DNA from: Pocillopora damicornis
Taxonomy: Eukaryota
NCBI RefSeq assembly: GCF_003704095.1
Contig: NW_020844993.1
Span: forward strand, 1 to 64,000
Reading direction: 5' to 3'
Length of the DNA stretch: 64,000 nucleotides
Below the pieces are notes generated by a model that saw nothing but the letters and a program-made list of their open reading frames with translations, was not told the origin of the DNA and searched no databases. Every line of letters begins with the position of its first letter. Position 1 is the stretch's first letter. Positions 10,601-48,997 of this stretch are shown here, one piece after another. The position numbers and the translations under genes were made by a program.

Positions 10601-10675
10601 GTTGAAAATGCTGTTTACTTCTTTACCATCCTGAATATCATTTGTGTGATCTTTTTATACCTACCCCCTCTTATG

Positions 10676-15384: not shown

Positions 15385-15705
15385 TAAGTTTTGGGGTCGG
15401 TAAAGAAATAGAGAAGGGTGTTTTTTTCTTCTTGTCACGAGCGTGAGGTCCCAATGAGGAATCGAACCTCAGACCTTCGGATTCTGCGCTACGATGCTCT
15501 AACACTAAGCCACAGAGACTCTGTGGTAAGCTACGCCCATTACGAAGCTCATATATGACTCACGTCCTGCATACTGCTAACTAGGATTAGCGATTTATCT
15601 AGAATCGGAGCGCGGAATCCGTACCTTTGAAGTGTGATTCCTCATGGGGACTCGGAATTTCCTTCTTTGTCCCACGCTTGTGACATGACGAAAAACATTT
15701 TTCTC
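15385..15705. mobile_element. tRNA-derived SINE, two inverted halves
   Basis: Reverse B-box GGAATCGAACC in the left half and the inverted counterpart GATTCCTCATGGGGACTC..TTTGTCCCACGCTTGTGACA in the right half; a related copy lies at 48620-48890. Confidence 0.7.
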
Positions 15706-16190: not shown

Positions 16191-16200
16191 CCTAATATGG
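16191..16200 (+). promoter_or_regulatory. CArG box of gene A2
   Basis: CCTAATATGG, followed by TACGTCA and TTTAAATAGG. Confidence 0.7.
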
Positions 16201-22419: not shown

Positions 22420-22460
22420 CCTAATATGGCGATGTTACGTCTGTTTCTGATATAAATAGG
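22420..22460 (+). promoter_or_regulatory. CArG box (22420-22429) and TATA box (22451-22460) of gene A3
   Basis: CCTAATATGG ... TATAAATAGG. A reverse ISRE-like GAAAGCGAAACGAAA lies at 22281-22295. Confidence 0.7.
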
Positions 22461-24166: not shown

Positions 24167-24435
24167 AAAGCGTAGAAACCCATAACCGATAGGTAGATTC
24201 TTTGATTTGATTACGTGGTATAACTGGGTAAGATTTCGATTATAGTGTAATCAAGTAAGTCAGGGGCAAAAGATGGAAAAATTTAATTAGAATTTAAAAT
24301 TTGATATTTGAATCTAAGCAAAGCACACTCATTGCGAGAAGATGCTGTTTATAGAGATTTTCTTGTTTTCTCAAAATTTAAAGCGTGGTTAATTTTTAAA
24401 AATTTTTATCCAGGGTAACTTGAGAATTTATCGCT

Positions 24436-25570
24436 TATTAAGTGGCTGAGAGCCTATTTCATAGAAAGTTACATTATGAGGTAAATTGTTTCAGACTCAA
24501 TAGGTAACCTGAAGAGGTCAGTGGAGATATCTCACGATAGTGTTGAAAAGTATTTTCTTATTCAGAGGTTCAGTTACCTTGAATAATAGCAAGCAACTTT
24601 CATTGCTCTCATTTGAATTCATAACTGATATTATGAATCATTTTGTATACAATATGTATCGTTTATGCCAACCAGAAAACATGGTTGCAATTTAAGGCAG
24701 ATGCCTTTAAAACTGAATTAATGGTCTATGGTAATGTTACAGAAATTGATCATTAAGTTCGTGATGTTTGACTAAATTTCCAGTGGGGAAAACAGTCGTG
24801 TCACATACCTGAAAAGGTAAATTTTGCGGAACAAAAGAAGGAAATGTTCCTTTCGTCAAGAGATGTGGTTCTTAAGATGAGCTCAAATCTCGGACACGTC
24901 GCTGCTATTACACTCCCATTGTTGTAGCTTTGAGAGCTACTTGGTGGATTGTAAAGATAAGCTCAAATCTCGGAGAATTGAGAATTTATCGATCACACTG
25001 AGCCTACTTCTATTTATGAGAAATATAAATTTAATGCAAATTTACTGAATTCATGTCACGAGATTCGCTCAACGTTCATTGTTTATTAAGTGGCTGAGAG
25101 CCTATTTCATAGAAAGTTACACGATAATGTAAACTGTTTCAGACTCAATAGATAACCTAAAGAGGTCAGTGGAGATATCTCACAATAGTGATTGAAAAGT
25201 ATTTTCTTATTCAGAGGTTCAGTTAGCTTGAATAACAAGCGACTTTCAAAGCTCTCGTTTGAATTCATAAGTGATATAATGAATCACTTTGAAGACAATA
25301 TGTATCTTTTATGCCAACCAGAAAACATGGTTGCAATTTATGGCAGATGCCTCTAAAACTGAGTCAATGGTCTACTGTAATGTTACAGAGATCGATCATT
25401 ACGTTCATGATGTTCGACTAAATTTCCAGTGGGGAAAACAGTCGTGTCACATACCTGAAAAGGTAAATTTTGCGGAACAAAAGAAGGAAATGTTCCTTTC
25501 GTCAAGAGATGTGGTTCTTGAGATGAGCTCAAATCTCAAATCTCAAAGCTCAATTCTCGGACACGTTGCT
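24436..25570. repeat. About 470-bp imperfect direct duplication (24436-24905 and 25086-25570)
   Basis: Both copies begin ATTAAGTGGCTGAGAGCCTATTTCATAGAAAG and end near TCTCGGACACGT. Confidence 0.9.
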
Positions 25571-28918: not shown

Positions 28919-29635
28919 CAAACCGCCATTTTCAAACATCCAATCTGAGATTAAGTTGCACGTCTTGGTCTTCGAAAACTAATACACGTAATAACCATCC
29001 TCGCAACTTGTGTTTGTAGTATCCGAAACGTTAAGCTCACCAATAATCATTAGGTATGAGGTAACCACTGGCCATGATAGTTGGGAACCCTTATCCAGTT
29101 TCAAGCGATTTATAAAATTATGAATGTCACTGTCTTGCTTTAAATTTTCAATTTCTTCATTAAACTTATCATGATTATTTTCTCTAGTCGACAGTAAGTA
29201 TTCTGCAATGTTAATGTTATCATCAGCAAGCATCGCACAAGTTCCCTGGCGGAAACCGCTGACGTATTTAGATTTAAATTAACATTCGATGATGATAGCA
29301 ACTGTGATTCGTAATTTCAAACATTCTTGCAATAATTCAAAATGATTTATACTTGTGAGGGAGTATTTCATGATCGACAGATTAATAAATGATAATTCTT
29401 CTGCATACTGTAGATTCGTGATTAAAGTAAACATTCCAGCATCAGTAGCCATTTTGCCATCTAACTTAGAGTCAAGAATTAAACTGCGGCACCAGGAACT
29501 AACTGCTGCACGATCATTAATATTAAAAGATTTTACCATTTCAATTGAAAACGCCCTAAAAGAAGGAGGGTGTTGATATTTCATCAAACTAAACGGATCT
29601 TCTTTATGGTGCGAGGTGATTGCTGATAAAGCCAT
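28919..29635 (-). pseudogene. Type B pseudogene B2 (exon 1 only)
   Basis: MALSAITSHHKEDPFSLMKYQHPPSF...WMFENGGL|GTAAGT in a single frame, with premature stops at 29279-29281 and 28979-28981. No exon 2 or 138-nt element was found downstream. Confidence 0.88.
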
Positions 29636-29997: not shown

Positions 29998-30491
29998 CTT
30001 ACAGAAAGTTCCCAGGTTCCTGCGAAATTCAGGGAAATGCTAATTCAGACTCCTGAATAATGAAATTATGATGATCGATGTACTCGATTGGCAGAACTCA
30101 AATATCAAACACATAATGTAATATTATTTTATTATCTTTTTACATTTTTACATATCTGGGTGGGTATTTTACATTTTTACATATTCAACATTGTTCAACA
30201 CTTTTTTACAAAAACACTATTTACACATTTTGTATTTCTCCTTTTTTGGAGAAATCACTAATAAAAGAAGGTCCAGAGAAACTATTGAAAAAAGAAGGCC
30301 CAGAGAAGCTATTCAAAAAAAGAAATCATTGAAAAAAGAAGGCCTAGAGAAACCATTGAAAAAAGAAATGATCTTTAACGGCATTTTTTGCCACGTTGCG
30401 TTTTATTCACAAGCACAAAGACAGCGATTAAAGACGAAAAAAGCTTAGTGTCGCATCGAAAATAACTAATTCTCGCATGACTACAAATGCT

Positions 30492-30629
30492 GACTGCCTC
30501 TTAGTCTGGTTTCTCTCCTTTGATCTTTCCGGCTTGGTTGTACCTGCCAGAGGCTCACATGCCTCCGCCGGCTGAGTTCTCAGGATCATTGAAACGCACA
30601 AGCCCCTCCACCACGGCAAGGTGGCAGTC
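30492..30629 (-). ncRNA. 138-nt conserved structured element, copy 2, downstream of B3
   Basis: Same length as copy 1, about 5 substitutions, sense to gene B3. Confidence 0.7.
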
Positions 30630-30656
30630 TGTAAGAGGGGTGCGTGTATTGGTTTC

Positions 30657-30857
30657 TCACAATATTTAAGAACTTCCTGCATTGTCACAGGAAAGTCAAA
30701 AGTATTGTGAGACACCTTTGAATCGTATAAGATATATTTATAAAACAGTCTCTTAATTTTCACAATATTTAAGAACTTCCTGCATTGTCACAGGAAAGTC
30801 AAAAGTATTGTGAGACACCTTTGAATCGTATAAGATATATTTATAAAACAGTCTCTT
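30657..30857. repeat. 103-bp-period tandem duplication in the B3 3' region
   Basis: TCACAATATTTAAGAAC...AACAGTCTCTT at 30657 and 30760. Confidence 0.9.
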
Positions 30858-30872
30858 GATTTAAAAATTAGA

Positions 30873-32888
30873 TTATAGATCGACCCGTTTTCTGAGTAGC
30901 TTGATATTTTCACCAACAGATTCTTTCATGGCGAATAACACAGATTCACTAATGGCTGCTCCTTTCTTCTCCTTCACGAATTCTTTGTATGTTTTCTGGC
31001 AAACAAATTAAAGACAATATACCATTAGCTTTCGGTGATTTTAAATTGACCAGCTGCTAATTAAGGGTGTGTTAACAACTCGGTTCTGCAAAAAGTTTTT
31101 CATTCATACACACACTAATCAAAGTAATAATCCTATCTAGAACTAAACTCACGAGTTTATGTATTTGGTAGCATTTCTGCACATATTACGGTTGGGACAA
31201 TATACACTTATCAACAAGTATTTATATTGCGACAAAAAGTGACAAGACGTGAATGACGGAATGAATAGGATTAATGATAGCTCAAATGAATTGCTGATTA
31301 TGCAACAGGGTATGCGACCTTAAAGTCTCACCCCTTAGAGAGGAGTTTGAATTGTGAGCAATATTTGATGGCACCTTCTATAAGAAATGAAAATTCATCT
31401 CTAGACACTTAAGATCTGTTTGTTTTTTATTCAGATGGGTCATTGAATACATTGGATCAACCAGTGAATTCTTCTCCGCTTGAACAGCTTTCTAGAATTG
31501 TCGAACAAGCCTAAATTTACATTTACTCATCGAGCGATTGTTTTTCTCTTCGCGTTTTACGTGATGTTTCACTTCTTTAAAACATTCTTTCACTCACTAA
31601 CTTGTGTTTCACTTTCTGGGAGTTATCAACCAACGGAATATATAGAGACAACATGGCTGGAAAACAGTGAAGATGTAAGACAAATGAAAACAACTAGTAT
31701 TGTGAACAATCAGAGTATTTGTTGTTGAACCTCAAGCATGACGCCTGAAAATGTTTGACTTTACGGAAGGTCGGTATTTTATGAAACGCTCGTCTTTAAA
31801 AACAGCTATGTTTTTTAAAGAAAACTATAGATCGTTGTTACTATTCGCAAATCACCACTTTTTTGAAATAAAAGTCAATTCCTGCTGAATTGCAACTGTG
31901 AAAAATGGATTCGAATAATCATCAAACATCGACGCGATGTTTCCTATGGTTGTCGTTTCTGTTGCAGAAGAATGTGACTTAGGTCTTAGACACATGACTA
32001 TCCCAATTGTAATTTTTATATTTTGCATTCGCTCTTTGCAAACGTGTACTTTCTACGCCAATCAGGTAACGTTGCGGAAATCTAAACTCGATATTTGGAG
32101 GACTTATTTATATATTCAGGGTATGCAATATGTAAGTTCAGCTTACTCACCAAACCACCATTCGTAATAATCCAATCTGATAATAACTTGCATGTCTCGG
32201 TTTCGGTGAACCAACACACATAATAACCAGCTTCTAAAACCTCCACATCTCTTGAATTTGGGGTACAAGCAGCATATAACTCACAAATGACAACCAATAA
32301 GACTGTAAACACCGACCAAGACGGCTGAGTTTTACGAATGAACGCGTGTAGTATCTGATGACAGTCACTAATTTGCCTCAGCTGTTCAAGAAGTTGCCAT
32401 ATCATCTCCTGGTTGTTTTGTTTGGTGGTAAGTAAATGTTCCAGAACATCGGTGAGGTTATCAGGAGGCTTCGTCTCAGCGTCACGGCGGAAGCCATCGA
32501 CAGATTTAAACCTCACGTAATTTTCCAAAAGAACTCCAGTTGAGATTTGTAATTCCACTTTCTCCAGCTCTCGCAACAAATCAGCGCGGCCTATATCTTT
32601 AAGGATATACTTTAACAGTGACATGTTGGTGGAAGATAATTCCTGAGCATTTAGAAGAGACTTGATTAACTTATATAACTCAGCATCAGTAGCCATGTCG
32701 CCATCTAACATCGAATCAGGAATATTACCTAAACATAAAAAGCTAAAAGCTGCGCGATCATCGTTGCTCAAAGACTTTACAAGTTGAACTATAAAGCTCT
32801 TAAAGACTTGAGGATATTGGTATTTCATCAAGCTGAACGGATATGGAAAAGATCTTCTGTCTCCAGAAGAAGCTGTTCTTGACTCCAT
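30873..32888 (-). CDS. DED + Bcl-2-like domain protein, type B copy B3; exons 32888-32151, 30995-30873
   Basis: DED (FSFLC..IGRADL), VLLENYVRFKS, PSWSVFTVLLVVICEL, WIITNGGL|KTYKEF. Donor TTG|GTGAGT, acceptor GCCAG|AAA. Confidence 0.85.
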
Positions 32889-33661
32889 GATTTAGTAGGA
32901 ATCTTTGCAAAAAACAAGAACCTACGAAGGGCGCATGATAATATATTGCACTTCACAATTACGTCATTTCCATTTTTGTCTCATAACAATAGAAAGATGA
33001 GAATTGTTTTATACTCTGACACCGATATGAGGTGGCTAATGGAAAGTGCAGATGTGTCATCAATGGGAAATTCGTCCAATAGAGAAAGTTTCACAGTACA
33101 GCGTCGCTGTCTCCACTGTTTCACTGTTATAGGGAAAAAAATAAAGAACGAGATCGAGTGAATCGCCATAACTGTGTGTGCTACGTTCGGGGCACTGCAG
33201 ACAGATCCGTGGTGGCATTTCTATTTTGAGTGAGTTTACAAAGACAGTTGAGGCCGTTTTCTTACACGGGGTCTAACCCAAACCGTGCTTTAACACAAAC
33301 ACAGGACCTTAATATTATCCATGAGAGGGTTGCTTTCAGTAAATAAATGTCCTGCCCCCGTTACTTTTCGGCCTTCTTGACACTGTACACAGAAATGAGT
33401 GTTTAGATAAAACATTCAGCTAAATTGAAGATAGTTTAGAACTCAGTTTTGTTGAACAACGACTAATCTTTCTTTAGATAACCGGCCCTTGTGGTCTATC
33501 ACCATGGTAACTACAGACGGCATTGCCCTAATATGGTACTCTATTAAGTGGAGGGGGGTAAGGGAAATTTGTTATACTCATATAAATAGAATCCCAGACC
33601 CAACTTTCTGCCTCCTCTGACGACTGCGACAACATCGACAACTTACAGACTTACTGACGAA
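32889..33661. promoter_or_regulatory. Putative bidirectional promoter between B3 (-) and A4 (+)
   Basis: 773 bp separate the divergent ATGs. CArG CCTAATATGG at 33527-33536, TATAAATAG at 33581, TTACGTCAT near 32960. Confidence 0.6.
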
Positions 33662-35321
33662 ATGACTGACCGACTTAAACAAACTTTCAGAAATACTTTG
33701 TATCAGATTGCTTGCAATCTCGATGAAGAACAGCAAAAAGGACTTCAGTTTCTTTGTGTTGAACACGTTCCAAGACGAGTTAAGGAACGTCTTGACCTTT
33801 TCTATGCTCTGGAGGAAAATAAGAAGATGTCGTGGATCAACGTTTCCTTCCTGATGGAATGTTTGGACGAAATTGGAAGAAAGGATTTAGCTGAGTTATT
33901 AGCGAAGTTCGAGGTAAAAAGAAACATGTTTATTCTTCTTAGTTTCTACGTCAAGAAGAGGAATGGACAGCATTCTTTTGATGATGATGATGACGACCGG
34001 TCATCAGCGACCGAGTTGGCGGAGTATCTCGTGCAATTGATGGAAGGATTTGAGGGAAACGTTGAAATTAGAGACATAATGAACAGCTCAGATGGTGATA
34101 ATAAGAAAGATCTTTGGCTGAAATTTGTCAACGAATGTCCCGCATGGAGCTCAAGAAAGACATGGAGTAAGTTCTCTATGCTCGTTGCCCTTGCCGGGGA
34201 AACCATTTGCGCTTCAGCATCAATTCACCCTGGAGGAAACTCAGAAGAAGCCATAATGGATATCTGCATAGCATTGGCAGATGAGCTATATTGTCCAATG
34301 CTTCAGCTTGGAAGCTGGGTAAATAAAATCGCTTTGTATTAAGTGTTATGAATATAATGTAATACAATAGCATCAGTATTCGGTTGATTTTATCTAGCTT
34401 CAGAGACTAGTAAGAAATCGAAACTTCTCGATACGAAGTTGGAATATTGAAAGTGAAACTTAATCTGAACTTATAACTTTACTAAGTGACTAATGAGCTC
34501 AAAGGTTCTCTCTGAAACCAGAAAACTATTGAAAGAGAAACGAAATTGATACTGGACCAATTCAGCAAAGGATTGAGTCGTTTTCAAGTTCCAAATTTGA
34601 AGAATCAGCTGTTTCAGAGAAGTTTATAAGCGCACAAAATTTAAATTGTAACGTAGTCGATGCGCCATGGTTTAACTTAGTAGATTTTGCTGCTAAAATT
34701 ACCAAAGAAAACTTAATCAATTAGAATTTATCTGGCAGTATGTTTAAAAAACTTGTAATAAGTACGGTTAATTGTCTGCCACAAGGCATGTAGAAGCTGA
34801 GATATTTTTTGAAGCCTTGAAATGTTTGTCTCTTCGCAATCATACATATTTGCATATTATTTTTTGAAGCCTTGAAATGTTTGTCTCTTCGCAATCATAC
34901 ATATTTGCATATTATCCAAACGAATAAATTATTCATAGCTGGGGTTTTTAGGGGTCAGTAGAACAGAGATATGCAAACAGTTGTCACTTAAACAATTACC
35001 ATTTTTAAATTTGTAGATAACTACCGTCTTACAAACAGGAAGTGGGAGCGATTAACTTCTGCTGTTCTCACAATCGTAAAAGATCCCTCTCTTACTAAAG
35101 TGTTTCTTAGGTTCATTATTTTCTTTTCGTTTTTTTTCCTTTACTTTGTTTTTATTGTTTTATATTTACCTATTTCCTATTGAATACAGGAGGACTTTCA
35201 TACCTTTGTGAGAAGAAGACACAATCTGGTTTACGGGAACGACACGAGTTGCAACACTTCTGTGAACAGAGAGCAAATTGCAGACGCAGTCCGAAAGTTG
35301 GAGGAGGCTATCTTTTTCTAA
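33662..35321 (+). CDS. DED + Bcl-2-like domain protein, type A copy A4; exons 33662-34318, 35190-35321
   Basis: DED (LQFLC..IGRKDL), KTWSKFSMLVALAGE, LGSW|EDFHTF. Donor TGG|GTAAAT, acceptor TACAG|GAG; ends LEEAIFF*. Confidence 0.85.
34803..34916. repeat. About 55-bp tandem duplication in the A4 intron
   Basis: TTTTTTGAAGCCTTGAAATG...GCATATTAT occurs twice. Confidence 0.9.
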
Positions 35322-35513
35322 ACGAGACAAAACAAGGCAACCCCAGCCAAACATACATATAAAAAAATGAGAAAACTTAGAAAAAAAAGACAAAAGTTAT
35401 AAACGAAATCAGGTGAAAAAAAGGAAGGAGGAAAGACGCGTACATCAAAAAAAAAAAAAAAGGAAAACGAAAAAAAAAAAAATAAAAAAAAAGCCAAGCT
35501 TGTCATGAACAGA

Positions 35514-35750
35514 TCAAAAATAAAGTTCAAACCACCTCAAGATTTCATCATCATTTTCAAGATTTACCTCCATATTGGACACCGGTACATAGCCTAAGCA
35601 AAAAATCCTAAACGCAGCCTTATCGTCATCGCTTAAATCTCTCATACATTCAACTACAAACTCTTTTAAGACAAACGGACGCTGATATTTCAACAACCAC
35701 TCTCTTTGCGCAAATGATTTTAGCCTTGAAGTCGCCGTCGGTAAAGCCAT
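35514..35750 (-). pseudogene. Truncated type B copy B4 (5' part of the DED only; paralog of B6)
   Basis: MALPTATSRLK..LLKYQ..VNLENDDEI matches the start of the ORF at 44444, then breaks off. Confidence 0.88.
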
Positions 35751-36345
35751 GACTGAAGCTAATACTTTCAGTCAAATTAGGAAAGACTGCGCATCTTGAC
35801 GCACTCATTCAACATCCGGGCACTTACTTTCATTTGCAACCCGGAAGCCAACGTCGCCTTCGGTTCGGATCGTACTGGTGTCGTTATTGCTTTCCAATGG
35901 AGATCTGGGCCGGTTTGTTCCTAACCAGGGCTTGGTGCAAATTTTTCACTTAGTTTATACCTCTGCAAAAGGATTTTTCTTTTGCATCTTTCCCCTTAGT
36001 CTCGAGTCATATTAAGATAAAACTCAGCAAAATCTTAGTTCTTATACGCGCTCTTCTACATAAGAAATTAAAACCAAGGTTACCTTTTAATCCTAGATTA
36101 ACGTAAACACCCACTCGAAAAATTCGGCCCTGGGCTTTACGTACAATGACACACGCTTTGGAGGGTGATTGATATATGGTAAGCCGCATAAGTAGTGTTT
36201 TAAGACGCCATCGAAATTCGGAAGAAACAAGAAAGACGAAATCATTTATATCTCCTGCACGCCTTGCGTTCCTATCTATAAAGTTCTGTATTGGGAACAG
36301 GAAAAAAATTTGGTTGCTGTGGTTCCTCTCGGCAAAGTACCATTA
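35520..36345. repeat. Segmental duplicate of the B6 5' end plus the B6/A6 intergenic region (about 44215-45054)
   Basis: Long shared blocks, e.g. GGAGATCTGGGCCGGTTTGTTCCTAACC and CGAAAAATTCGGCCCTGGGCTTTACGTA. Confidence 0.9.
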
Positions 36346-36346
36346 T

Positions 36347-36962
36347 GATCCTGGCCACATTGAGTTGGGTGCGTTACCCAATGATACCCCCTGAATGGCT
36401 GTGATATGGCACCTGTTGAGCTTCGCCTGGGATGAAACATGAGCTGGGGTATCCTTCCCCGGGGAGTGCCCCGCGAAGCATGCAGGTGACCTTGCTATCT
36501 CAGTCACAGGATAATACCCTTGTTATTAAGAACAAGGAGGGGACCAGGAAACCGAAAACACTCTGAAAACATCGCCAAATATCATTTTCCAACTTCTTCA
36601 AACTATACAGAAAGTCTTAAGGAATTTGAAATTTCTAGCCAAAATCATAGGCTGACCCCCTTATGAAAAATCCAATATGGCCGCCATACAAGTCAATTCA
36701 AAAGAAACAAATGAAAAGTTATGGTGAGGTTGCTGGAATGCAATAGCAAACGAATGATACACTTTAAGAAGGCTTCAGTACCTCCATTGATGCTACCTCA
36801 GTGGGTGACAGGACTTAAAAAGCAGATCAATCTTGAAGGAGCTATGGCTGAAGATTAAAAGCAAATTTCTCATAGTTTTCATCTTTACCCCATACGACAT
36901 TATTTTTGCACTCACCTGTCCAAGTAACAACTCCTCAGCCTTTAAACTGTCTTTGAGGCAGA
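36347..36962 (+). repeat. Orphan duplicate of the A5 3' flank (39581-40192)
   Basis: GATCCTGGC..GATACCCC..GAGCTTCGCCTGGGATGAAACATGAGCTGGGGTATCC.. through ..TAAACTGTCT is shared by both. Confidence 0.9.
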
Positions 36963-37284
36963 AACCTCTTTGGCGGGATAATCAGTCCTAAAATTATGCA
37001 TGTTTAATGATGCAATGAAGAGTTTCTGCAGCCGCAGAATGTCGTGTTTTACAAGAAAGGTATTTCATCTGTTGGTGCATTTTCGTAAAGTTTGATTTAT
37101 TCTCCATGTAGTTTGGGGCTGACGCTAACGTCTACCTTCTGGCTGTTTTTATTGCATACCTTTAAATATATTTTTTGCGGGTTTCTCCTCTTTCATGCAC
37201 GAAAGTGCATGAAAATCCAATCGGTGTCGTGTTCACTGCCATCCCGTAACCATGGTTGCAGGCTGGCATTGAACACGTCACCGA

Positions 37285-37294
37285 CCTAATATGG
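37285..37294 (+). promoter_or_regulatory. CArG box of gene A5
   Basis: CCTAATATGG preceded by ACGTCA and GTAACCATGGTTGC, the same layout as A1. Confidence 0.7.
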
Positions 37295-37374
37295 TGCTTG
37301 TTTTGAACTTAGAGATGTAAGAGAGGTTCCTCAGTCTTGTTGCGCCCACTGATGACAGCCACATCATCACGAAC

Positions 37375-39575
37375 ATGGAGGAGAAACTAAAATGTTATTA
37401 CAGAGTTGTTTTATCTCGGATTGCTCGAGATCTGGACGAAGAAGAGCTAAAACAACTGTTATTCCTTTGCAGAGGTGAAGTTCCAAGACGTGTTACAAGC
37501 GTTTGGGAACTTCTTGTTTCACTGGAAGACTCGGCCAAGATATCTTGGATGGACGTTTCCTTCCTGAAAAGATGTTTGAACGTTATGGGAAGGGAAAATC
37601 TCGTTGTCATCCTGACTGAGTTTGAAAACAAACGAGGTCTGTCCATTATTTTACATGCCTTCGTCGAGGAGAAGCAAAATGTGAAGCCCATTACCCATTC
37701 GTCCGCGACTGAAGCGGCTTCCCACCTCGTGCGGCTGATGGAAAACTTTTCAGGCGGAGAAGATCTGAGAGAAGTGATAAGAAACACAGGCGAGAAAGCG
37801 GAAGATCTTTGGCGGCAGCTCCTGTCTGAAATTCCTTTCTCAAACCTGACATGGGGAAAATTTTCCATGCTAGTTGCGATTGCCGGTGAAATTATTTCCT
37901 CATCGGCCTCGACTCACCTGAGAAGAGACCATGCAGGAGAAGATGTCATGAATAAGTGTTTGGCTTTAGGAGGAGATCTTTCTTCCTTCATGCTTAAACT
38001 TGGATGTTGGGTAAGTGAAAAAAGGTTTTATGGTGTTAATTCTAAGATTCATTATCTACCAGTTTAGTGGCTGAGGTACAAAATCTGATCAATGCTATCA
38101 TTCAAAACCAGGGCAACAAACATCTTTTCCAAACGCGAGACTAATAAAAGCGAAAGATTGTAGCGGAAGCTGAAACACAAATGGATCGAATCTTACCATT
38201 AAGGTTGGCTCCTACGACTAATTCTTTGCTAATCTAAACTGGAGTGAAGTTTCTATGCAGAATGTATCTCTACCTCAAAAAATGGAGAGTTTTAAGGACG
38301 CAAAGTAAATATCGATTCCGTGTGCGCTGGAAATCACGCGAGAAATTCACATGAAATGATCATAACTTTGTTGTTACGGTTATTAATCGACTGCATATGC
38401 CATTGCAAAAGTTTAAATCTAGTCGTCAACTGTAGACTTATCATGGCGGGTGCTTTCAGTGTGCTGATTTGTAAGCGATCAGACTTTTCATAATAATATC
38501 AGTATCACTATGATTTGATCAGAGTACTCGTAGCTCGAGGCGCCATTTTGTTCACATTTGGCTCTTGAATTCTTATTCTTTCTCTGGTATCTCCGCTTAA
38601 TAATAATTCCGATTAACGATTAAGGCTAACAATGGAACCTCAGCACCTTTTCCTTCAAAAATGTTTAGATCATTTTACTCTTCCTTCTGCAACTTCGAAA
38701 GTTGCATGTAGACTAAAAGATGAAAATGATCCAAACACTGTGATCAATTGATGAATTAAATTGTTTTGCAATTTTACTATAAGTGTGACCATTGATTTCT
38801 CCTTCTACAACGATGGGACGATAATATTTGAGCCGGGGTGGTTAAATTTGAATCCTTGAGGAAACGAAACTCAGAACTCTCGCTTAGTTAACGGGAGGGC
38901 AGCAATCCGTCACTAATTTCCGGATTAGGGAGGCTGCGGCATTTGGACTTTGTACAAAACAAGAGAAGCGTGACTGGATTTCCTTTCACAGTGCTCTGGA
39001 ATGTAGATATTGAATGTAGAATCTCGGATGTAAATCTTAGTTATAAATCTTCCATGCAACTTGAAACCACGGCTTCAAAGGAGCCATTTTATAGCAAACA
39101 ATGAACAGTATGAACGAGTGGCCTAGATAAACAGAAACAACATGAGGATTTCAAATGTCTCAATTGTCTTTACCGAAGTTCTAGAAAGTTTGATAAAGAA
39201 ATTAAAATTAGATTTTATGTCGCGTCAAATAAATAGCTCCTTAAATTGGCCAAGGTCCTTTGAAGGGAAAAGGTCTTATCTTCGGCCAAAATGCCACCCT
39301 ATAGCTATTTGAACGTTGCTGAATCTCGTATTGAAGCTTTGACTTTGGGCAATCAGCGATAATAATGCAATGAACATAAAGGAAAACTTTATTTAAAGTA
39401 AACACAACAAGTCATGTTTCCTTCTTCACCACATTTTCAGGAGCAGTTCTGTAGTGATTTAGAGAAACGTTTTAACCGGATTTGTAGACGAGATGTCAGT
39501 CGCAACTCACCCTTGTCTTTTTGGAGACAAGTGGCTGACACGATTGGAGATTTGGAGAACGAGATCTTTTTCTAG
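37375..39575 (+). CDS. DED + Bcl-2-like domain protein, type A copy A5; exons 37375-38010, 39441-39575
   Basis: Closest paralog of A1. LLFLC..GRENL, LTWGKFSMLVAIAGE, LGCW|EQFC. Donor TGG|GTAAGT, acceptor TTCAG|GAG; ends LENEIFF*. Confidence 0.86.
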
Positions 39576-40344
39576 CTGGCGATCCTGGCTACAATGAGTT
39601 GGGTTGGTTACCCAATGATACCCCCTGAATGGCTGTGATAAGGCGCCTGTTGAGCTTCGCCTGGGATGAAACATGAGCTGGGGTATCCAATCCCCGGGAA
39701 GTGCCCCGCGAAGCAAGCAGGTGACTGTTATCTCAGTCTCAGGATAATACCCTTGTTATTAAGAACAAGGGGGGGACCAGGAAACCGAAAACACTCTAAA
39801 AACCTCGCCGAATATCATTTTCCAACTTCTTCAAACTATAGAGAAAGTCTTAGAGATTTGAAATTTCGAGCCAAGATCATAGGCTAACCCCTTATGAAAA
39901 ATCCGATATGGCTGCCATATAAGTCAATCCAGAAAGAAACAAATGAAAAGTTATAGTGAGGTTGCTGGAATGCAATAGCAAACGAATGATACACTTTAAG
40001 AAGGTTTGAGTATCTTCATTGATGCTACCTCAGTGGGTGACAGGACTTGAGAAGCAGACCAATCTTGAAAAAGCTATAGTTGAAGATTAAAAGCAAATTT
40101 CACACAGTTTTCATCTTTATCCCATACGACATTATCTTTGCACTCCCTGTTCAAGTGACAACCCCTCAGCCCTTAAACTGTCTGAGTGGCAGCAACTCTA
40201 CCATAGGCACTTTTCTTGTTTCCATAAATATTCGCAACCTAAATAGTATACGAATAAAAAACGCTGACTGAAACTTGTTTGAAATTGAAACTTTTGATAT
40301 TGATGCGATTTGAGAATTTTCTAATGATCGAGTATTACACTGAA

Positions 40345-41285
40345 AGAATGACTAAAGATTGAAACCAAGAAAGATACACAGTAAGAAATTACCACAATTT
40401 ATTTTATTTTAGCTTACTTTCCTCGAAGATATTAGCTCTACAGCTACACTGTGAATTTCGAGCATAAATAAAGTATATGTATGTATGTATGTATGTATGA
40501 ACCAAGAAACAAGTTGAACAAGAAGCAAACCAAGTACCAAGCAAAATTAAAACAACTTATGGTGGAAAAAACGAAAAACTATACAACAAAGACTGCATTA
40601 CGCACAACTTATGGCGGAAAATCGAATAACCTTACAATGACAAAAAAACATTGCTTACTACTTATGGCGGAAAAAAACTACTCAATGCAAAAGCAAACTG
40701 AATTATGACTTATTGTTGACTCAAGTGCCAAAGATAGAATGTTACAACGTATATTTAGGTATACGCAAAAAACACAACTGGATCGTCTTATGTATGCTTT
40801 AATCATACTACAGAACTTGAACACTGTTGAATAGACTGGAGTTGACTTTGTCCACCAACGGCAGTAATGTTCTTCTCGATAAGCTCATCAGACGTTGTTT
40901 TTATGATCGGCGGTGCAAGTAGGCGGGTAGGGATAGGTATAGTCCCCTGAGACGAACATATCATGGGTTGAGAGAGGGGGGGGCATATAATGGGGTGGGG
41001 GAGAAGGGCTGGGTGGCAAAGTCCCCATATTTTGGTGCCAACATTATCGCAATAGCAGCGTAACATTGGGTTATGGAAATATTCAACCTCTTGATCTTCA
41101 TACAAATCGTTCAACTGCACTTTGGCACTTGGTGAAAAATAGTATGTTTCAGAGTCATCATTTAAGAAACAGCTTTCTCGTGCAGGCAACATATCGATTA
41201 CAAACACATAAGGCACCTAAAGGCTTTCCAAGTAGTTTGCGTGTGCCAAACAACTATGCAGATGACATTTTGAGAAAATTCAGAA
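40345..41285 (-). mobile_element. Unclassified dispersed repeat of about 0.95 kb with decayed ORF, copy 1
   Basis: Second diverged copy at 47112-48119. Internal (CTTATGGCGGAAA) subrepeats; the reading frames are not conserved between copies. Confidence 0.65.
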
Positions 41286-41337
41286 AAGCTCTAAAAAGCT
41301 TGAGTGTATTGAGATTTCACCACGCAGAACAGAGACT

Positions 41338-41585
41338 GAAAAGATCTTCTGTTTCCAGAAAAAGCTTTTCTTGACGCCATAATTTAGTACGAATAAAAAA
41401 AAAAAAGAACCTGGGAAGGGCGCATGATAATTTAGTGCTCTGAATATCCGGGAACTTAAAAATTACGTCATTTTCGTCTCACTACAACAGAAAGATGAGA
41501 ATCGTTTTATACTCTGATTAGCTATATTAGGTGGCTGATGGAATGCGCAGAAGTGTCTTCAACAGGAAATTTGTCCATTCGAGAC
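41338..41585 (-). pseudogene. Type B remnant B5: promoter plus first ~14 codons of a B3 paralog
   Basis: ATG at 41380 gives MASRKAFLETEDLF; the DNA matches the B3 start (ATGGAGTCAAGAACAGCTTCTTCTGGAGACAGAAGATCTTTT). The upstream sequence matches about 32890-33085. Confidence 0.8.
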
Positions 41586-42426
41586 AATCACTGTGCAGCT
41601 ACGTAAATGCAAACGTAGAGAATTTACTATCATAGGTAGTTAGAAGAAAAATATAGTAAATTCTGAAGTTTACTATTAAAACTGAGGTAAATTTGAAACT
41701 TCAGCCGGAGAGAGTCGTGTTATGTAGCTTGTGGCATTAAATGCAGTTTCACGCAGAAGAAAGTAAAATCGAAACTCGTTCTCGCTAAGATAGATCTACA
41801 CACATTCATCCTCTGAAAAATTTGGGAAGATAGAGGATCTCAAAAAAATGAATGTTTTCAATTTGCCAAAAAAACAGTTTGATTTCGATAAGTACCTTCC
41901 AAAACTAGGCATAAAAAACCACTAACGGTAATGAGTCACCAGCATGAAGGAAACAAATTAATGATGCCGGGTGAAAACCTTGAAAACGGTTGTAGCTTGA
42001 TCACTTAAATGTTCTGAAGTTCTGTTGTTAACATTCACAAGTTTGGAAACCAATACTTTCTCCGATTTATACACCAGTATATAAACTAGTATTCCACAAC
42101 AGAGAGCTAACGAAATGACAGCCAACATGCAATTTAAATATTTTAATTTATTTTCATCTCTCTTCAAAATTCAATTTCAAATCATTACTCTTCAACTATT
42201 TTGCTATGACTTGTTTATGCATTTTGGTTCATGTTCTATAATTAAACATGTTTCTTAAATATCTATACATGTTTGTACGTGTGTTTCACATTTTTCTATT
42301 CTTTACAGTTTTTTGAAGTTACAAGCTTAGTACATTTAAATTTTTTAAATACGTTACGTTTCTGTGTATAGGCACATACACACAAGAATGTGACAGGAAC
42401 ATGGCATCCTGTAAAGTAAGTATTTT

Positions 42427-42564
42427 GACTGCCTTTTAGTCTGGTTTCTCTCCGCTGATCTTTCCGGCTTGGTTGTACCTGCCAGAGGCTCACATGCCTC
42501 CGCCGGCTGAGTTCTCAGGATCATTGAAACGCACAAGCCCCTCCACCACGGCAAGGTGGCAGTC
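42427..42564 (-). ncRNA. 138-nt conserved structured element, copy 3, downstream of B6
   Basis: About 3 substitutions versus copy 2, no indels, sense to B6. Confidence 0.7.
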
Positions 42565-42730
42565 TATAAGAGGGGACGTCTAGTTTTTGAATATTCGAAA
42601 TCACACCACTTAACGTTCTTAACTCATCCTTAACGCTTTACGTCTCAAAATAGTACTGTATTTGCAGTCACGTCCACGCACCACTTAACGCCCTTTAGTC
42701 ACGCGTCCTTACGAGAGCCTCACGAGTGCT

Positions 42731-44444
42731 CTATGTCTCAACGTAGAACTGTAGAAGCCTTCTTATCTCCCTCAGCGATTCTGGAATGTCTGTTCCGCTG
42801 TTCAGTACTCCTCGTTGCGACCTGACAAACTTCTTAAAGGTTTTCTGATAAATGAAAAAATACATGCATTAGTTAAATCGATGCGAAATCCCAACCAAAA
42901 ACGAATACAATGTACCTGTCTCTCCGTTTAACACTTATCCTTTGGTAAATATTGCACTTAATTCGAAACACAGGAAGTCTTTTCTTATTGATCAAAAATT
43001 TCAAAGGATTCCAAGACTAAACAAATGTAGGATAAATTTGCATAACTGTCTCATTTTTCAGCTTGGATATTGATATTGGCTGTTCAATCATGCATGAGTT
43101 AGAATAAACGTTTTAATCGCTTACTTTGATGGCGAAGTTAATAAACTTACATTAAATCAACGCAAAGAAACGATCGAGACTGATTGATTCAATACTTTGA
43201 TCGTTTCTTGTGAGCAGCAGGTTTCCTTTACACTTGCAGTTGGAGTCAACCTACTCAGTTACAAAAATGTCTGGCACAGACATGCACAGCATTCCATATA
43301 AATTGAAAGTCCACTCTTCAGAATGCTCCCGAGGAGCAGAGCGTCACAAACCGATTAAGCCGATGATATATAGCTAACTCGTCAAGTGCTACCTCTATGT
43401 TAAGTCAAAGTGAAGCTGGTAATGATTAAATACCAAGTAACGATGCATATGAAGTTGCAACTAAAGTTTGTTTCTATTCCGTCATGTATACATTATTATG
43501 CGGCGACTTTGTTGTCAGGACACAACTTTGTTGAAAGATACAGTCACACGTATTTTCACCTTTAACTCTATCTCAGTCTTAGTTACGTTTTCCTTCATTT
43601 TGTGTTAGAACCTGTGGCTGATGGCGGCGTAATATCGAAAAGATGTAGTTATAATAGTGATGTTTGATTCACTTACCATTCCACCATTCTCTAAAATCCA
43701 TTCTGCTAACAACTGGCTTGTTTTCGTTCCACTAAAGGCGCATACGTAAAACCCATCTGATGCCAACACATCGACCGGAGTTCCGAAATAAAGACCATAC
43801 GCGCCATACAACTCACCAATAATCACGAGGTAAACCATAAACCCAGACCAAGATAGATCAGAGCGAATAATTTCGTCACAAATACGCAGAAAAGTGCCAT
43901 CAACATCATCCATACCATCGTACATACCATCCATTCTACTCAACTGATTCAAAATTTCCTCAATCAAACGCTTATTCCTTGTTTTAATTCCTAATAAAAG
44001 ATCGACAACCCTATCAGAACGACCAGCACACTCCGAGAGACTGCTATCTTTCCGGACACAATCGCTTAACTTCACGTAACCTTCAACAATGTTGCCGAGA
44101 AACATACGTAATTCCACCTGCTTAAGCTTCTGAATTATATCCTCTCGACCAATCTTCGATAAATATCGCTCTAAAAATGATACATCCTTAACTGACAACG
44201 TGCTATCCTTAACAAGAAATTCAAACAACTTAAAGATATCATCATCACTTTCAAGATTTACATCCAACTTCGACCCCGGTACATCGCCTAAGCACAAAAA
44301 CCTCAATGCAGCCCTATCATTAATGCTTAAATCTCTCACACATCCAACTACAAACTCTTTCAAGACAGAGGGAATCTGATATTTCAACAACCCTTCTCCT
44401 TGTGCAAATGGTTTCAGCCTTGAAGTTGCCGTCGGCAAAGCCAT
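42731..44444 (-). CDS. DED + Bcl-2-like domain protein, type B copy B6; exons 44444-43677, 42844-42731
   Basis: DED (LRFLC..IGREDI), LSWSGFMVYLVIIGEL, WILENGGM|KTFKKF. Donor ATG|GTAAGT, acceptor ATCAG|AAA. Confidence 0.85.
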
Positions 44445-45157
44445 GACTCAAAGTCACAATTTCTAATAAATTAGGAAAGACTGCGCATCATAACCCTCTC
44501 ATTCAACATCCGGGCACTTACTCGACTTGCAACCCGGAAACCAACTTCGCCTTCGGCTCGATCGCACTAGCGTCGTTATTGCTTTCCGATGGAGATCTGG
44601 GCCGGTTTGTTCCTAACCAAGGCTTGGTGCATATTTTTCATTAGTTTTTTACTCCTGCAAAGGGATTTTTCTTTTGTATTTTTTCCGTTAATCTCGAGTC
44701 ACACTAAGATAAAGCCCAACAAAATCTAACCTGTCATACGCGCTCTCCTACGTAGGAAATTAAAGCCCAAGTTAACTTTTAATGCTAGATTAACGTTAAC
44801 CCCCTTTCGAAAAATTCGGCCCTGGGCTTTACGTATAATGACACACGCTTTGGAGGGTGACTGATATATAGTAAGCCGCATAAGCAATGTTTTAAGACGC
44901 CATCGAAATTCGGAGGAAACAATTTAACAAAAAATCAAAGACAAAATAAAATCATCTATATTTCCTGCACGCCTTGCGTTCCTATCTATAAAGCTCTCTA
45001 TTGGGAACAGAACAAAAAATAGTTGCCGTGGTTTCTCTCAGTAGATTATCATTAATCATTTACAATGCCCTTTTATGGTGCTTGTTTGGGCACCTAAGAT
45101 ATAAAGGGTCAGGCAGACCATTTTTCGTTCCCTCTACCGCCATCGACGACACCCGCC
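44445..45157. promoter_or_regulatory. Putative bidirectional promoter between B6 (-) and A6 (+)
   Basis: 713 bp separate the divergent ATGs. CArG CCTTTTATGG at 45069-45078, TATAAAG at 45100, ETS-like CCGGATGT on the minus strand near 44510. Confidence 0.6.
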
Positions 45158-46690
45158 ATGTCGTCACTGACGAACGAGGACTTTGACAAACTTCGACGGG
45201 CTTATTCGGTTGTTTTGGACCAGATTTCTCATAAACTGGATCAACTTCAGCAGGATAAGCTTCGTTTCTACTGTTCTGGACTAATACCGACGGAAGATAG
45301 AGGCTCTTTAAACATTTTGCGTTCATTAGAACATTCGGATAAAATTTCCTGGGCCAATGTTAATTTCTTGAAAGAGGCTTTAAGAGCAATTGGAAGATGT
45401 GATCTCGCCAAACTGCTAGAGACGTTCGAAGTTAGACGCGATCTAACGCTTCTTCTGGATTTCTATGCCAGAGAGAGACTTGAAGAGGATCCCGTTTACG
45501 TTCCCCTTTCGCTGAAAACGACCGCGCGTCATTTGTTGACAATCGTCACAGAAAACGAACACGAAAGCTGCAGATTTGACGGCACAAGAATGAGAACACT
45601 GGTGGAGGCAAACAAGAACATCCTCCAAGTCTTCGAGGAAGAAGTTGATGTGCGTAGTGGAGTGAACTCACCGTGGAGTAAACTGACCATGCTTGTGATA
45701 ATTGCAGGAGAAAGCATTGTGGCGGCACAAGCTTCCAGAAGCGACGACATACGCAGGAATGAAATGCTAGAGAAGTGTTTCAGTTTCGTTGAAATGCTTA
45801 GCTACAGGATGCTCGAACTTGGCAGCTGGGTAAGCTAAGAAAATCTTTCGTTCAAAAGTTTTAGCGAGAAGAATTTTCATTTTTCTGTAAATATTCAATG
45901 TTTTGTTCCCAGAATAAGCTACCTATTCCCAGAATTATTAAAGTGCGATGGCGGAAGTTGTCAGTTGTATTGATAAAGATTGTCAGTTTAATTATAGTTT
46001 GTCGCGCCGGAAGTCCACTTTAAAATGGCTAGTTTAGTTTGATTGAAACCGATCACAAATGACATTATTTTAGCAGTGAGGAGGCAGTACCAAAATTTAG
46101 CCTTTTTTGAAAGAGGCTCGCAATTCGTTCTCGTCAGTTCGATGCTTATGCGTAATGTTGTTTTTGATGGAATGTTATACTTTACAGCTCGCACGCTTTA
46201 AAAAGCTCAACCTTCGTAATATGTACTACAGGTGATAGTTAATACCAATCAAAACCAATAATTAAAAGTAAGATTGAAAACAATGATCGTCAAATTCCGA
46301 TACGATCATTCGGAAGATAAACGCATCGAAAGTAAACTTTAATAATTGGTTTCCAGTCCATCCTCTAGCTGTGAACTGGTTACCAGTTTCTACTCGCGTA
46401 CATACTTAATTTTTTTTTTTTTTTTTTTTCAAATATCATTATTGCTTTTTCTTTTGATCAATTTACCATGAATCTACTTCGTTTTAGCCGGTGGTTTAGA
46501 ATAAATGAGGCAGCCCGAAAATTTTTAGTGTTGCTCACAAATTTACAATAATCCCTTTCAGGATGATTTCTGTGATTATGTGGAGGAAAGATGCATTGAG
46601 GTATGGGGTCAGCGGGAAGGGTGCAACCGCAGCAACGCAGACGTAGCAGACGTGGTTCGACAACTGAGAGAATCTCCTTTTTTCCTTTAG
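45158..46690 (+). CDS. DED + Bcl-2-like domain protein, type A copy A6; exons 45158-45829, 46562-46690
   Basis: DED (LRFYC..IGRCDL), RDLTLLLDFYARE, SPWSKLTMLVIIAGE, LGSW|DDFCDYV. Donor TGG|GTAAGC, acceptor TTCAG|GAT. Confidence 0.85.
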
Positions 46691-47111: not shown

Positions 47112-48119
47112 AGAATGACCAAAGATTGAAACCAAGAAAGATACACAGTAAGAAAGTACCACAAATGAACCAAGAAACCAAGAAACAAGTTTAACAAGAA
47201 GCAAACCAAGTACCAAGCAAAAATGAACACACAACTTATGGCGGAAAAAAAAACGAAAAACTATGCAACAAAGAAAACTTACTTACAATTAATGGCGGAA
47301 ATATCGAATAACTCTACAATGACAAAAGAAAACCTTACTTACTACTTATGGCGGAAACAAAATTACTCAAAAAAAAAAACTGAATTGTGACTTATAACTT
47401 ACTCAAGTGCTAAAGAATGAATGTTACAACGTATATCTAGGTATACACAAAAACACAACTGGATTGTCTTATATAAGTTCTAGTCTTGAAGTATTAGAGT
47501 ATATAATAGTTACTTATATAGTATATACTTATATATATATTATATACTTATATACTATATAAGTATATCTTATATAAGTTCTAGTCTTCTTACTAGAACT
47601 TGAACGGTGCTGAATAAACTGGAGTTGACTTTATCCAATTATTGCAGTGATGTTTTTCTTGGTAAGCCCATCAGGCGCTGTTTGCATGATCTTTTAACAA
47701 TGTTTAAGAACGCTGATTTTTCAGTCCTTTTTCACGGGCGGCTCTACAAGTAGGCGAAGTTAGGATAGGTATAGTCCCCTGAGACAAACATATAATGGGA
47801 CGGGGGGGGTGCTTATAAAGGGGTGGTAGAGTGGGTGGTGTAGTAAAGCTCTCATGTTTCGGTGCCATTATTATAGCAATGGCAGAATGAAATTGGGTCA
47901 TGGAAATATTCAGCTTCTTGATCTTCATACAAATCGTTTCATTGGGATTGCACTTTAGCATGTGGTGAAAAAAAGTATGTTTCAGAGTCATCATTTGAGA
48001 AACAGCTTTCTCACACAGGCCACAGATCAATTTCAAAGACATAAGGCACCCCATTGCTTTCCAAGTAGTTTGCATGTGCCACAGAACCATGAAGATGACA
48101 TTTTGATAAAATTCAGAGA
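47112..48119 (-). mobile_element. Unclassified dispersed repeat, copy 2 (see 40345-41285)
   Basis: Shared blocks, e.g. AAAGATTGAAACCAAGAAAGATACACAGTAAG and TTCAGAGTCATCATTT; it has an AT-rich insertion at about 47485-47590. Confidence 0.65.
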
Positions 48120-48619
48120 TGCTATGTGCTTAGTTTTGCATGCCAAGTATCTGCAAAATCCAAGGAAACAGTAATTCATACCACTGAAGGTTTATTATCT
48201 GTCTACATCTTTACACGTTTGTGCGTTTATTTCATATTTTTGCATGATCCAAATTGTTCGGTTTTTTTTTCAAAGTAGGCATATTTCACGCATTTTACGG
48301 TTTGAACCTGGGGATAACATGTGATCGAGTGGTCTGAAAAAAGTGACCGACTTTTCGACAACCTGAGCGGAAGTCAACATCAGAGTCTTCACCAAAATTT
48401 CAGATATTGTACTCTCATTATCTTAGTAGCCCGTGGGTTGATGCATTTATATAAATAAATAAGTTTACTCCGCGGGATACTCACGAGCAACCAAGATTGT
48501 CCCTTCTTGTGTAACTGTAAAGAAAACGTTCGATCTCATTGCATTAAAATTTTGAACGCAAACTTTTATCTCATCGGACGTACTGCTTAAAAAAAATTAA
48601 GGAATATCACTTTGGAAAT

Positions 48620-48890
48620 ATGACCGAATAGAGAAAGATGTTTTTCGTCTTGTCACGAGCGTAGAACAAAGCAACAATTTCAAGTCTCAATGTGGAATCG
48701 AACCTCAGACCTACGGGTTCCTCGCTACGAAGTTCATAAGACACGTGCCTGCATATATATACTGCTATAGGATCAACAATGTCGATAGCGTCATGTTTGT
48801 AAATAGAATAAGAGAGATGGTAAGTTAAGAGCTCGGTAAAGAAATAGGGAAAGATGTTTTTTCGTCTTGTCACGAGCGTGGGACAAATTC
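48620..48890. mobile_element. tRNA-derived SINE fragments
   Basis: GATGTTTTTCGTCTTGTCACGAGCGT occurs twice, plus GGAATCGAACCTCAGACC; same family as 15385-15705. Confidence 0.7.
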
Positions 48891-48987: not shown

Positions 48988-48997
48988 CCAAATATGG
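48988..48997 (+). promoter_or_regulatory. CArG box of gene A7
   Basis: CCAAATATGG preceded by TACGTCA. Confidence 0.65.

Follow-up and report, generated by a model that had tools for sequence, protein, structure and literature searches.

A tandem array of two gene classes joining a death effector domain to a Bcl-2 fold, and its head-to-head pairs, in the coral Pocillopora damicornis

RESULTS

Two head-to-head gene pairs lie in an array of related genes

We analyzed the first 64,000 nucleotides of the forward strand of contig NW_020844993.1 of the coral Pocillopora damicornis (assembly GCF_003704095.1); this whole stretch is called the window. It holds 14 related genes or gene fragments of two classes, A and B, of which 11 are intact and 3 broken. 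From left to right these are A1(+), B1(+), A2(+), A3(+), B2(−, broken), B3(−), A4(+), B4(−, fragment), A5(+), B5(−, fragment), B6(−), A6(+), A7(+), and B7(−). All 11 intact genes have two coding exons, with a phase-0 intron directly 3' of a motif resembling Bcl-2 homology 2 (BH2). The same exon junction was found in spliced relatives from databases, including P0076, a relative of B3.

The central part of the array, from 30873 to 46690 (the stop codons in exon 2 of B3 and A6, respectively), drew attention because of class B genes that face class A genes head to head. In the first pair, B3 (30873 to 32888, − strand; exon 1, 32151 to 32888; exon 2, 30873 to 30995) encodes 286 amino acids and A4 (33662 to 35321, + strand; exon 1, 33662 to 34318; exon 2, 35190 to 35321) encodes 262 amino acids; both are intact, and their ATGs at 32888 and 33662 leave a spacer of 773 bp (32889 to 33661). 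The second pair consists of the intact genes B6 (42731 to 44444, − strand; exon 1, 43677 to 44444; exon 2, 42731 to 42844; 293 amino acids) and A6 (45158 to 46690, + strand; exon 1, 45158 to 45829; exon 2, 46562 to 46690; 266 amino acids), with ATGs at 44444 and 45158 and a spacer of 713 bp (44445 to 45157). Both distances agree with those given by an earlier sequence-only reading of this DNA. Its statement that the paired genes come from different sub-lineages was also borne out: A4 and A6 are 33% identical, B3 and B6 are 38% identical, and the trees described below agree.

Both classes combine a death effector domain with a Bcl-2 fold

The exon 1 products of all 11 intact genes matched the Pfam death effector domain (DED; PF01335) above the cut-off, and 3 of the 11 gave a weak match to Pfam Bcl-2. 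A family profile built from 15 sequences matched the DEDs of caspase-8, cFLIP, and FADD with E values down to 4e-15, and over its second half it matched zebrafish BCL2L10 (E value, 7e-6). By sequence, the DEDs of caspase-8, cFLIP, and FADD were the nearest ones, well ahead of PEA-15 (1e-14 versus 4e-5). The structures were examined with AlphaFold models of full-length relatives, not of the window proteins, namely, Desmophyllum OS493_029247 for class A (60% identical to A4; predicted local distance difference test [pLDDT], 88.8; predicted template modeling score [pTM], 0.86) and Stylophora LOC111342233 for class B (63% identical to B3; pLDDT, 86.7; pTM, 0.83). Both models were compared with 48,161 chains. 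Residues ~17 to 100 of the A model matched DEDs (VIA Z, 12.7; root mean square deviation [rmsd], 1.5; 85 residues), with PEA-15 tied as the top structural match. Residues ~90 to 240 matched the Bcl-2 fold (Z, 11.8; rmsd, 3.1; 137 residues) and the B model likewise gave DED and Bcl-2 matches, the second Bcl-2 alignment of the set having a Z of 11.5 (rmsd, 4.1; 149 residues); these Bcl-2 Z-scores are within a range that, according to the tool, helical bundles commonly reach. We nevertheless assigned the Bcl-2 fold because the sequence match and the intron position back it, and BCL2 and Bcl-xL have a phase-0 intron after BH2 as well.

A single continuous helix bridges the two domains (model helices 86 to 112 and 82 to 109). 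The C-terminal exon encodes an amphipathic helix at the place where Bcl-2 proteins usually have a transmembrane tail, and no C-terminal hydrophobic segment or membrane anchor was found in the last 45 amino acids of any of the 11 proteins (maximum KD19, ≤0.72). Motif residues were counted over an alignment of 55 A rows and 41 B rows. The Arg of the DED RxDL motif was retained in 54 A rows and 34 B rows and the Asp in 52 and 35, respectively; B7 has lost the Arg. The BH1 motif NWGR is partly degraded in class A (Gly in 20 of the 55 rows, Arg in 4). Gly-Arg is lost in class B, in which Gly is not among the six commonest residues at its position, mainly Ser or Pro. As judged by eye against the consensus, a good BH3-like motif is present in A2, the best of the set, and a degenerate one in the other A proteins; none was seen in the B proteins. 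The sequence-only reading had proposed that A and B proteins might heterodimerize, possibly through DEDs or BH grooves. Binding through the grooves is doubtful because the B proteins have neither the BH1 Gly-Arg nor a BH3-like motif.

In a Pfam scan, neither class had a sensor domain or an integrated decoy. In the Atlas, the A relative led to two cnidarian DED clusters (scores of 0.97 and 0.90), and the B relative gave only leads below 0.9. The ratio of nonsynonymous to synonymous substitution rates (dN/dS) for five pairs of paralogues was 0.37 to 0.74, indicating purifying to relaxed selection, and says nothing on pairing. A scan of prokaryotic genome contigs for relatives gave 88 pattern matches, none of which was confirmed. 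The literature searched, in which the coverage of subscription journals was poor, yielded no account of a family of DED–Bcl-2 fusions, and the architecture did not appear in the accessible parts of a coral Bcl-2 survey (PMC4715348) or of three other papers (PMC2246300, PMC11251625, and PMC11463336).

Classes A and B are old, separate clades

A quick tree was made from 67 of 134 full-coverage matches, left after dropping those more than 80% alike, with the proteins of the 11 intact window genes added. In it, class A (43 rows) and class B (30 rows) formed separate clades, with a value of 99 in the Shimodaira-Hasegawa-like approximate likelihood ratio test (SH-aLRT). The existence of a death-pathway family with A and B subfamilies, as put forward from the sequence alone, is thus upheld by distinct old clades and by the finding of both folds. 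Five rows fell outside both clades (P0138, P0146, P0156, P0191, and P0197), several of them with a more canonical BH2 end, which suggests that the DED–Bcl-2 fusion predates the A/B split. A and B proteins are homologous over 223 columns with 18 to 26% identity, and a search with representatives gave 41 clusters at an E value of ≤1e-30. Among individual genes, B1 shares 93% identity with LOC131774898 of Pocillopora verrucosa and B6 shares 71% with Stylophora LOC111327017; the other named relatives of the window genes came from Stylophora, Desmophyllum, and Oculina.

The A and B trees are partly congruent with co-duplication. The A4 relatives A1 and A5 mirror the B3 relative B1, yet A1 and B1 stand in tandem. 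A6 groups with A7, and B7 groups with B1 and B3 (96/93), not with B6. A clade of B6 and B7, which would mirror A6 and A7, was not in the best tree and was not rejected (P value of the approximately unbiased test, 0.066; 25 rows).

Database proteins like A4 (exon 1 range, 33662 to 34318) fell into 46 clusters, compared with 7 for those like B3, at similar sequence numbers. The 36 A4-like clusters compared had a mean pairwise identity of 92% and 43 variable sites. This excess of clusters may reflect high allelic diversity, extra copies, or a clustering artefact.

Upstream motifs follow class

All seven A genes, paired or unpaired, have a CArG box, CC(A/T)6GG, 67 to 142 bp before the ATG: at 4814 to 4823 (A1), 16191 to 16200 (A2), 22420 to 22429 (A3), 33527 to 33536 (A4, within the B3–A4 spacer), 37285 to 37294 (A5), 45069 to 45078 (A6, within the B6–A6 spacer), and 48988 to 48997 (A7). 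A TATA-like hexamer follows 20 to 21 bp past the box in six of them and 44 bp past it in A4. In class B, CCCGGATR was found 70 to 77 bp before the ATG in five of the seven copies, B4, a copy of B6, being counted among them; CCCGGATG lies at 44507 to 44514 for B6 and at 56376 to 56383 for B7, B2 has a variant of the motif, and B3 lacks it. The A-gene boxes make up 7 of the 12 CArG boxes in the window (4.8 ± 2.2 expected from shuffles) and the B copies 5 of its 6 CCCGGATR matches (0.9 expected), figures that are optimistic because the counts were made for motifs that had already caught the eye.

In the pairs, the proximal elements of the two classes lie 555 to 576 bp apart (555 bp in the B6–A6 spacer), a distance that fits two promoters back to back. 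Both spacers fall below the start distance of 1 kb used to call bidirectional promoters, and their proximal motifs are class specific. An alignment of the two spacers gave nothing significant (score of 20, a value reached by 256 of 300 shuffles), and the only stretch common to both was the CArG region on the A side. We therefore rejected a co-duplicated bidirectional promoter. Consensus sites for NF-kB and the interferon-stimulated response element (ISRE) were absent from the two intact spacers.

The number of head-to-head junctions is at chance

Across all 14 genes and fragments there are three junctions in which a B gene on the − strand precedes an A gene on the + strand, against a shuffle mean of 3.0 (P of at least as many, 0.70); among the 11 intact genes there are two, against a mean of 1.9 (P = 0.72). 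The strands themselves are biased: all seven A genes are on the + strand and six of the seven B genes on the − strand (Fisher P = 0.005; P = 0.024 for intact genes alone). Five of the seven A genes and two of the four intact B genes have no intact facing partner. A six-frame scan with hidden Markov models (HMMs) found no hidden A remnants opposite B1, B2, B5, or B7 and no hidden B remnants opposite A1, A2, A3, or A7. Intact genes are separated by 10 gaps, of which the two divergent spacers are the shortest (rank P = 0.022); this comparison is biased toward head-to-head gaps because such gaps hold no 3' untranslated region (UTR).

The arrangement had been called old or recurrent. A divergent layout of less than 1 kb in two divergent lineages does make an ancestral unit of B and A genes pointing away from each other plausible. 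In Stylophora, LOC111342232 (B6-like) and LOC111342233 (B3-like) have consecutive identifiers on a single contig of 203,658 bp. This hints that B genes may be adjacent there, the identifiers giving neither order nor strand, and the named matches included no A gene of Stylophora. No description of head-to-head immune gene pairs in cnidarians was found in the literature searched. As for expression, six Stylophora gene identifiers had no match in three supplementary files of PMC5990304, and a keyword search of the main text of PMC13581030 also gave none.

All intact B genes are followed by an element with a predicted HDV-like fold

Behind each of the four intact B genes, paired or unpaired, lies an element of 155 to 163 bp in sense orientation, at 10665 to 10825 (+ strand, 64 bp past the stop codon of B1), 30482 to 30640 (− strand, 232 bp past that of B3), 42415 to 42575 (− strand, 155 bp past that of B6), and 54028 to 54187 (− strand, ~120 bp past that of B7). 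These are exactly the four copies in the 64-kb window, and no comparable 3' element common to the A genes was found there. The copies are 91 to 96% identical, and the adjacent exon 2 sequences are 58 to 68% identical. AATAAA occurs downstream of the element in three of the four copies, and the element would probably lie in the 3' UTR.

Each copy can be folded into the nested double pseudoknot of ribozymes like that of hepatitis delta virus (HDV), with P1 of 7 bp, P2 of 7 bp, P3 of 3 bp, a 7-nucleotide L3, and a C-Y-A-A junction; 68 of 68 cells were paired. In the predicted fold, the position of the catalytic C in J4/2 is present in all four copies and in L002, a sequence described below. A descriptor of the fold, fitted to the copies afterwards, had no match in 40 shuffles of the window or in 5,000 shuffles of the element. 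Among themselves the four copies show no double-sided change. A search with the central 22-base motif alone found two contigs. One of them, the otherwise unrelated L002 (242 to 305, + strand), retains both P1 and the junction, and its P2 differs by three double changes; found in this way and with these changes, it gives independent support for the fold. The other, L001, was rejected as a relative, its motif match being due to chance. L002 is 1,410 bp long, is assigned to a metagenome-assembled genome (MAG) of Prosthecobacter, looks eukaryotic from its leucine-rich-repeat-like frames, and has a compact version of the HDV-like fold.

Several features depart from the usual ribozyme. The +1 base is C in all copies, P1.1 is a single G–C pair, and J4/2 has 1 to 2 nucleotides, whereas HDV-like ribozymes usually have a purine (G) at +1 and a P1.1 of two pairs. 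The Rfam ribozyme models did not match the element, and its stability computed free of pseudoknots is unremarkable (z, −0.15). By its modeled fold, the element fits a candidate HDV-like ribozyme. It may derive from an RTE retrotransposon. Ribozymes of this type have been described at the head of such elements in the parts consulted of PMC5786205 and PMC6765202.

The remaining members of the array and its copy history

A1 (4916 to 7085, + strand) is an intact A gene with no head-to-head partner; behind it in tandem lies B1 (8907 to 10600, + strand), an intact gene and the only B gene on that strand. A2 (16333 to 17910), A3 (22561 to 24166), and A7 (49055 to 51365), all on the + strand, are intact and unpaired. 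B7 (54308 to 56306, − strand), also intact, stands tail to tail with A7. B2 (28919 to 29635, − strand) is a class B pseudogene facing the tail of B3; its exon 1 has two in-frame stop codons, and no exon 2 was found.

B4 (35523 to 36345, − strand) had been read as a third B gene facing an A gene. It does face A5, with ATGs at 35750 and 37375 and 1,624 bp between them; as a third pair it was rejected, the junction being a rearrangement that brought part of B6 next to a paralogue of A1. B4 consists of a 76-codon 5' fragment of B6 (35523 to 35750) and copied B6 upstream DNA and is therefore not an independent pair. The copy is 83% identical to 44217 to 45054 over 842 bp, including ~600 bp upstream of B6, and ends ~15 bp short of the position of the A6 CArG box. 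B4 is followed by a direct repeat of ~620 bp (36347 to 36965) and then by A5 (37375 to 39575, + strand; exon 2, 39441 to 39575), an intact paralogue of A1 (57% identical in amino acids and 75% in nucleotides including the promoter). The second copy of the repeat lies just past the A5 stop codon (39581 to 40196; 91% identity), so that both copies flank A5. B5 (41285 to 41599, − strand; ATG at 41380) is a degenerate 5' fragment of B3 with ~215 bp of B3-like upstream DNA, 75% identical to 32793 to 33102; it faces the tail of B6 and has no A partner.

According to Pfam, the array is flanked by a dienelactone-hydrolase gene at the left end and by a gene with glutaredoxin and GST domains at the right. 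The latter is presumably PTGES2-like. The dienelactone-hydrolase gene has two copies of its last exon (2103 to 2270 and 2722 to 2889; 87% identity). A decayed repeat at 40345 to 41290 and 47112 to 48123 (73 to 96% identical in pieces) is probably a transposon remnant; its reading frames are short, and none of its Pfam matches was convincing. Recent tandem duplications were found at 7560 to 7937 (100%), 24427 to 24891 and 25075 to 25537 (92%), and 30654 to 30862 (98%); the one with 100% identity may have arisen in the assembly. A tRNA-like Rfam match at 15447 to 15519 (− strand; 39.7 bits), in a repeated stretch related to 48627 to 48887, may be the head of a short interspersed nuclear element (SINE).

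DISCUSSION

The folds, exons, clades, upstream motifs, and copy history described above characterize a coral gene family, arrayed in tandem, in which an N-terminal DED is fused to a Bcl-2 fold lacking a membrane anchor. We favor, with modest confidence, the reading that its two classes are regulated class-wise and act as adaptors or decoys on the FADD/caspase-8 platform, the pairs being promoters back to back. The family would have split early into classes A and B, the founders most likely being on opposite strands and possibly already head to head. Local duplication would then preserve orientation, and orientations kept in this way give a head-to-head junction wherever a B gene precedes an A gene. 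With a promoter of its own for each gene, a "pair" would be two such promoters standing back to back and acting independently, with control exerted class by class. Class A would be driven by a CArG and TATA promoter of the signal-inducible serum response factor (SRF) type, and class B would have an ETS-like motif and the common 3' RNA element. Proteins of both classes would be soluble, their DEDs docking on DED assemblies of FADD and caspase-8 as cFLIP-S, vFLIP, and PEA-15 do, and the Bcl-2 fold would offer a second docking surface instead of a membrane pore. The death threshold would be set by the balance of A and B rather than by fixed pairs. The partners of these proteins and the direction of their effect are our inference.

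Several points weigh against this reading. The two divergent spacers, short and nearly equal despite the old divergence of their genes, might have been kept so by selection if regulation is shared. The class B motif is missing from B3, although this gene is paired, and B3 might rely on elements in the spacer instead. The partial congruence of the two trees and the optimistic motif counts also weigh against our reading. The factor names are putative: the CArG and TATA arrangement would be the SRF-responsive layout of inducible genes and CCCGGATR an ETS-like motif, and no coral test of a CArG/SRF layout was found in the literature searched. On the protein side, the models represent relatives, the Bcl-2 Z-scores are of a common kind, and Foldseek gave no match at an E value of ≤0.001 for either two-domain model; its top rows were nonetheless Bcl-2 proteins and DEDs.

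A rival view that builds on the sequence-only reading sees B3/A4 and B6/A6 as cognate two-component modules with bidirectional promoters, whose products would heterodimerize as sensor and executor or as killer and inhibitor, in the manner of paired plant nucleotide-binding leucine-rich-repeat receptors (NLRs). Besides the short spacers in two sub-lineages, the congruent part of the trees, and the missing class motif of B3, this view can draw on the 46 A4-like clusters against 7 B3-like ones, which recalls a variable sensor with a conserved helper. Against it stand the junction count, the many members with no intact facing partner, the chimeric B4/A5 and partnerless B5, the unalignable spacers with motifs of each class, the hint of B–B adjacency in Stylophora, and the lack of a sensor or integrated-decoy domain. 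This view is weakly supported, and we regard it as unlikely; that genes stand head to head seems to be a by-product of array layout rather than a sign of dedicated partners. Melon Fom-1/Prv are reportedly head-to-head paired NLRs. The array resembles paired plant NLRs in that two related genes of immunity or cell death, each from another clade, are laid out divergently; it differs in having no NB-ARC, leucine-rich-repeat, or integrated sensor domain, in its mostly unpaired members, and in its class-specific promoters. Duplication as pairs, as implied by that analogy, did not hold up, since two of the seven A genes and two of the four intact B genes face an intact partner.

A guard switch working across both classes, in which short-lived B inhibitors restrain stress-inducible A killers and a shutoff of host expression or SRF induction leads to death, is improbable in our estimation. 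The B inhibitors would be short-lived because an HDV-like ribozyme past the stop codon would remove the poly(A) tail. The position and orientation of all four elements, their conservation relative to exon 2, the fitting pseudoknot, L002 with its P2 changes, AATAAA downstream of three copies, and a BH3-like motif in A2 and none in B proteins speak for it. A precedent is the hammerhead in the Clec2 3' UTR, described in the part consulted of PMC6765202 as removing the poly(A) signal and lowering expression. The unusual first base of P1, the single pair in P1.1 and short J4/2, the lack of an Rfam match, a descriptor fitted to copies that show no double-sided change, and a 3' UTR position deduced from the DNA speak against it. 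We would give as little credence to a fuller version, a two-class death switch in which DED–Bcl-2 chimeras join the caspase-8 platform to the Bcl-2 network, with CArG/SRF-induced A proteins, a labile B brake carrying a domesticated HDV-like ribozyme past the stop codon in every paralogue, and an ancestral head-to-head A/B founder. Compared with the RTE HDV-like ribozymes and the Clec2 hammerhead, as far as the consulted parts of PMC5786205 and PMC6765202 describe them, the B element is alike in its C-Y-A-A nested double pseudoknot and in its place between a stop codon and a likely poly(A) signal, and it differs in the C at +1, a large P4 insertion, and its retention in every intact B paralogue.

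Least probable of all is that these proteins are nonapoptotic immune scaffolds that use the Bcl-2 fold as a plain interaction domain, as poxviral Bcl-2-fold NF-kB modulators do, and the DED with other partners, as PEA-15 does with ERK; the eroded BH1, the missing membrane anchor, and the structural tie with PEA-15 fit such a role, and the sequence proximity to caspase-8, cFLIP, and FADD and the retained residues needed for DED assembly argue against it.

The constituent parts of the array are known from death pathways. With the Bcl-2 family (BCL2L10/NRZ, MCL-1, BAX/BAK, and Hydra HyBcl-2-4), the array proteins share a helical fold over ~135 to 150 residues and a BH2-like GxW/NGG motif directly followed by a phase-0 intron; they differ in the fused N-terminal DED, a degenerate NWGR, and the lack of a transmembrane tail. 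With FADD, cFLIP-S, the vFLIPs MC159 and K13, and PEA-15, they share the DED, with RxDL and an FL-type hydrophobic motif (rmsd, 1.3 to 1.8 Å), and differ in that a single DED is followed by a Bcl-2 fold and not by a death domain, a second DED, or a caspase domain. In vertebrates, the link between the extrinsic (DED and caspase-8) and intrinsic (Bcl-2) pathways is provided by proteins of its own, such as BID. Cnidarian expansions of DED–TRADD-N proteins have been described, with Bcl2-domain fusions in the DEDD2 TRADD-N clade (Kaur et al. 2021, PMC8195603). Going by the accessible part of that paper, the likeness is that proteins beginning with a DED have expanded in particular lineages of marine invertebrates, and the difference is that the array proteins have no TRADD-N, the DED and the Bcl-2 fold filling the modeled protein.

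The head-to-head pairing is the least informative part of the locus and close to ordinary. What seems new is a two-class family whose classes differ in promoter and 3' element. Because Pfam labels the fusion proteins as DED only, Bcl-2 inventories probably miss them. Apoptosis in reef corals is tied to bleaching and disease, and a DED–Bcl-2 fusion family with 11 intact copies at one locus suggests that cell death may be wired differently in reef builders.

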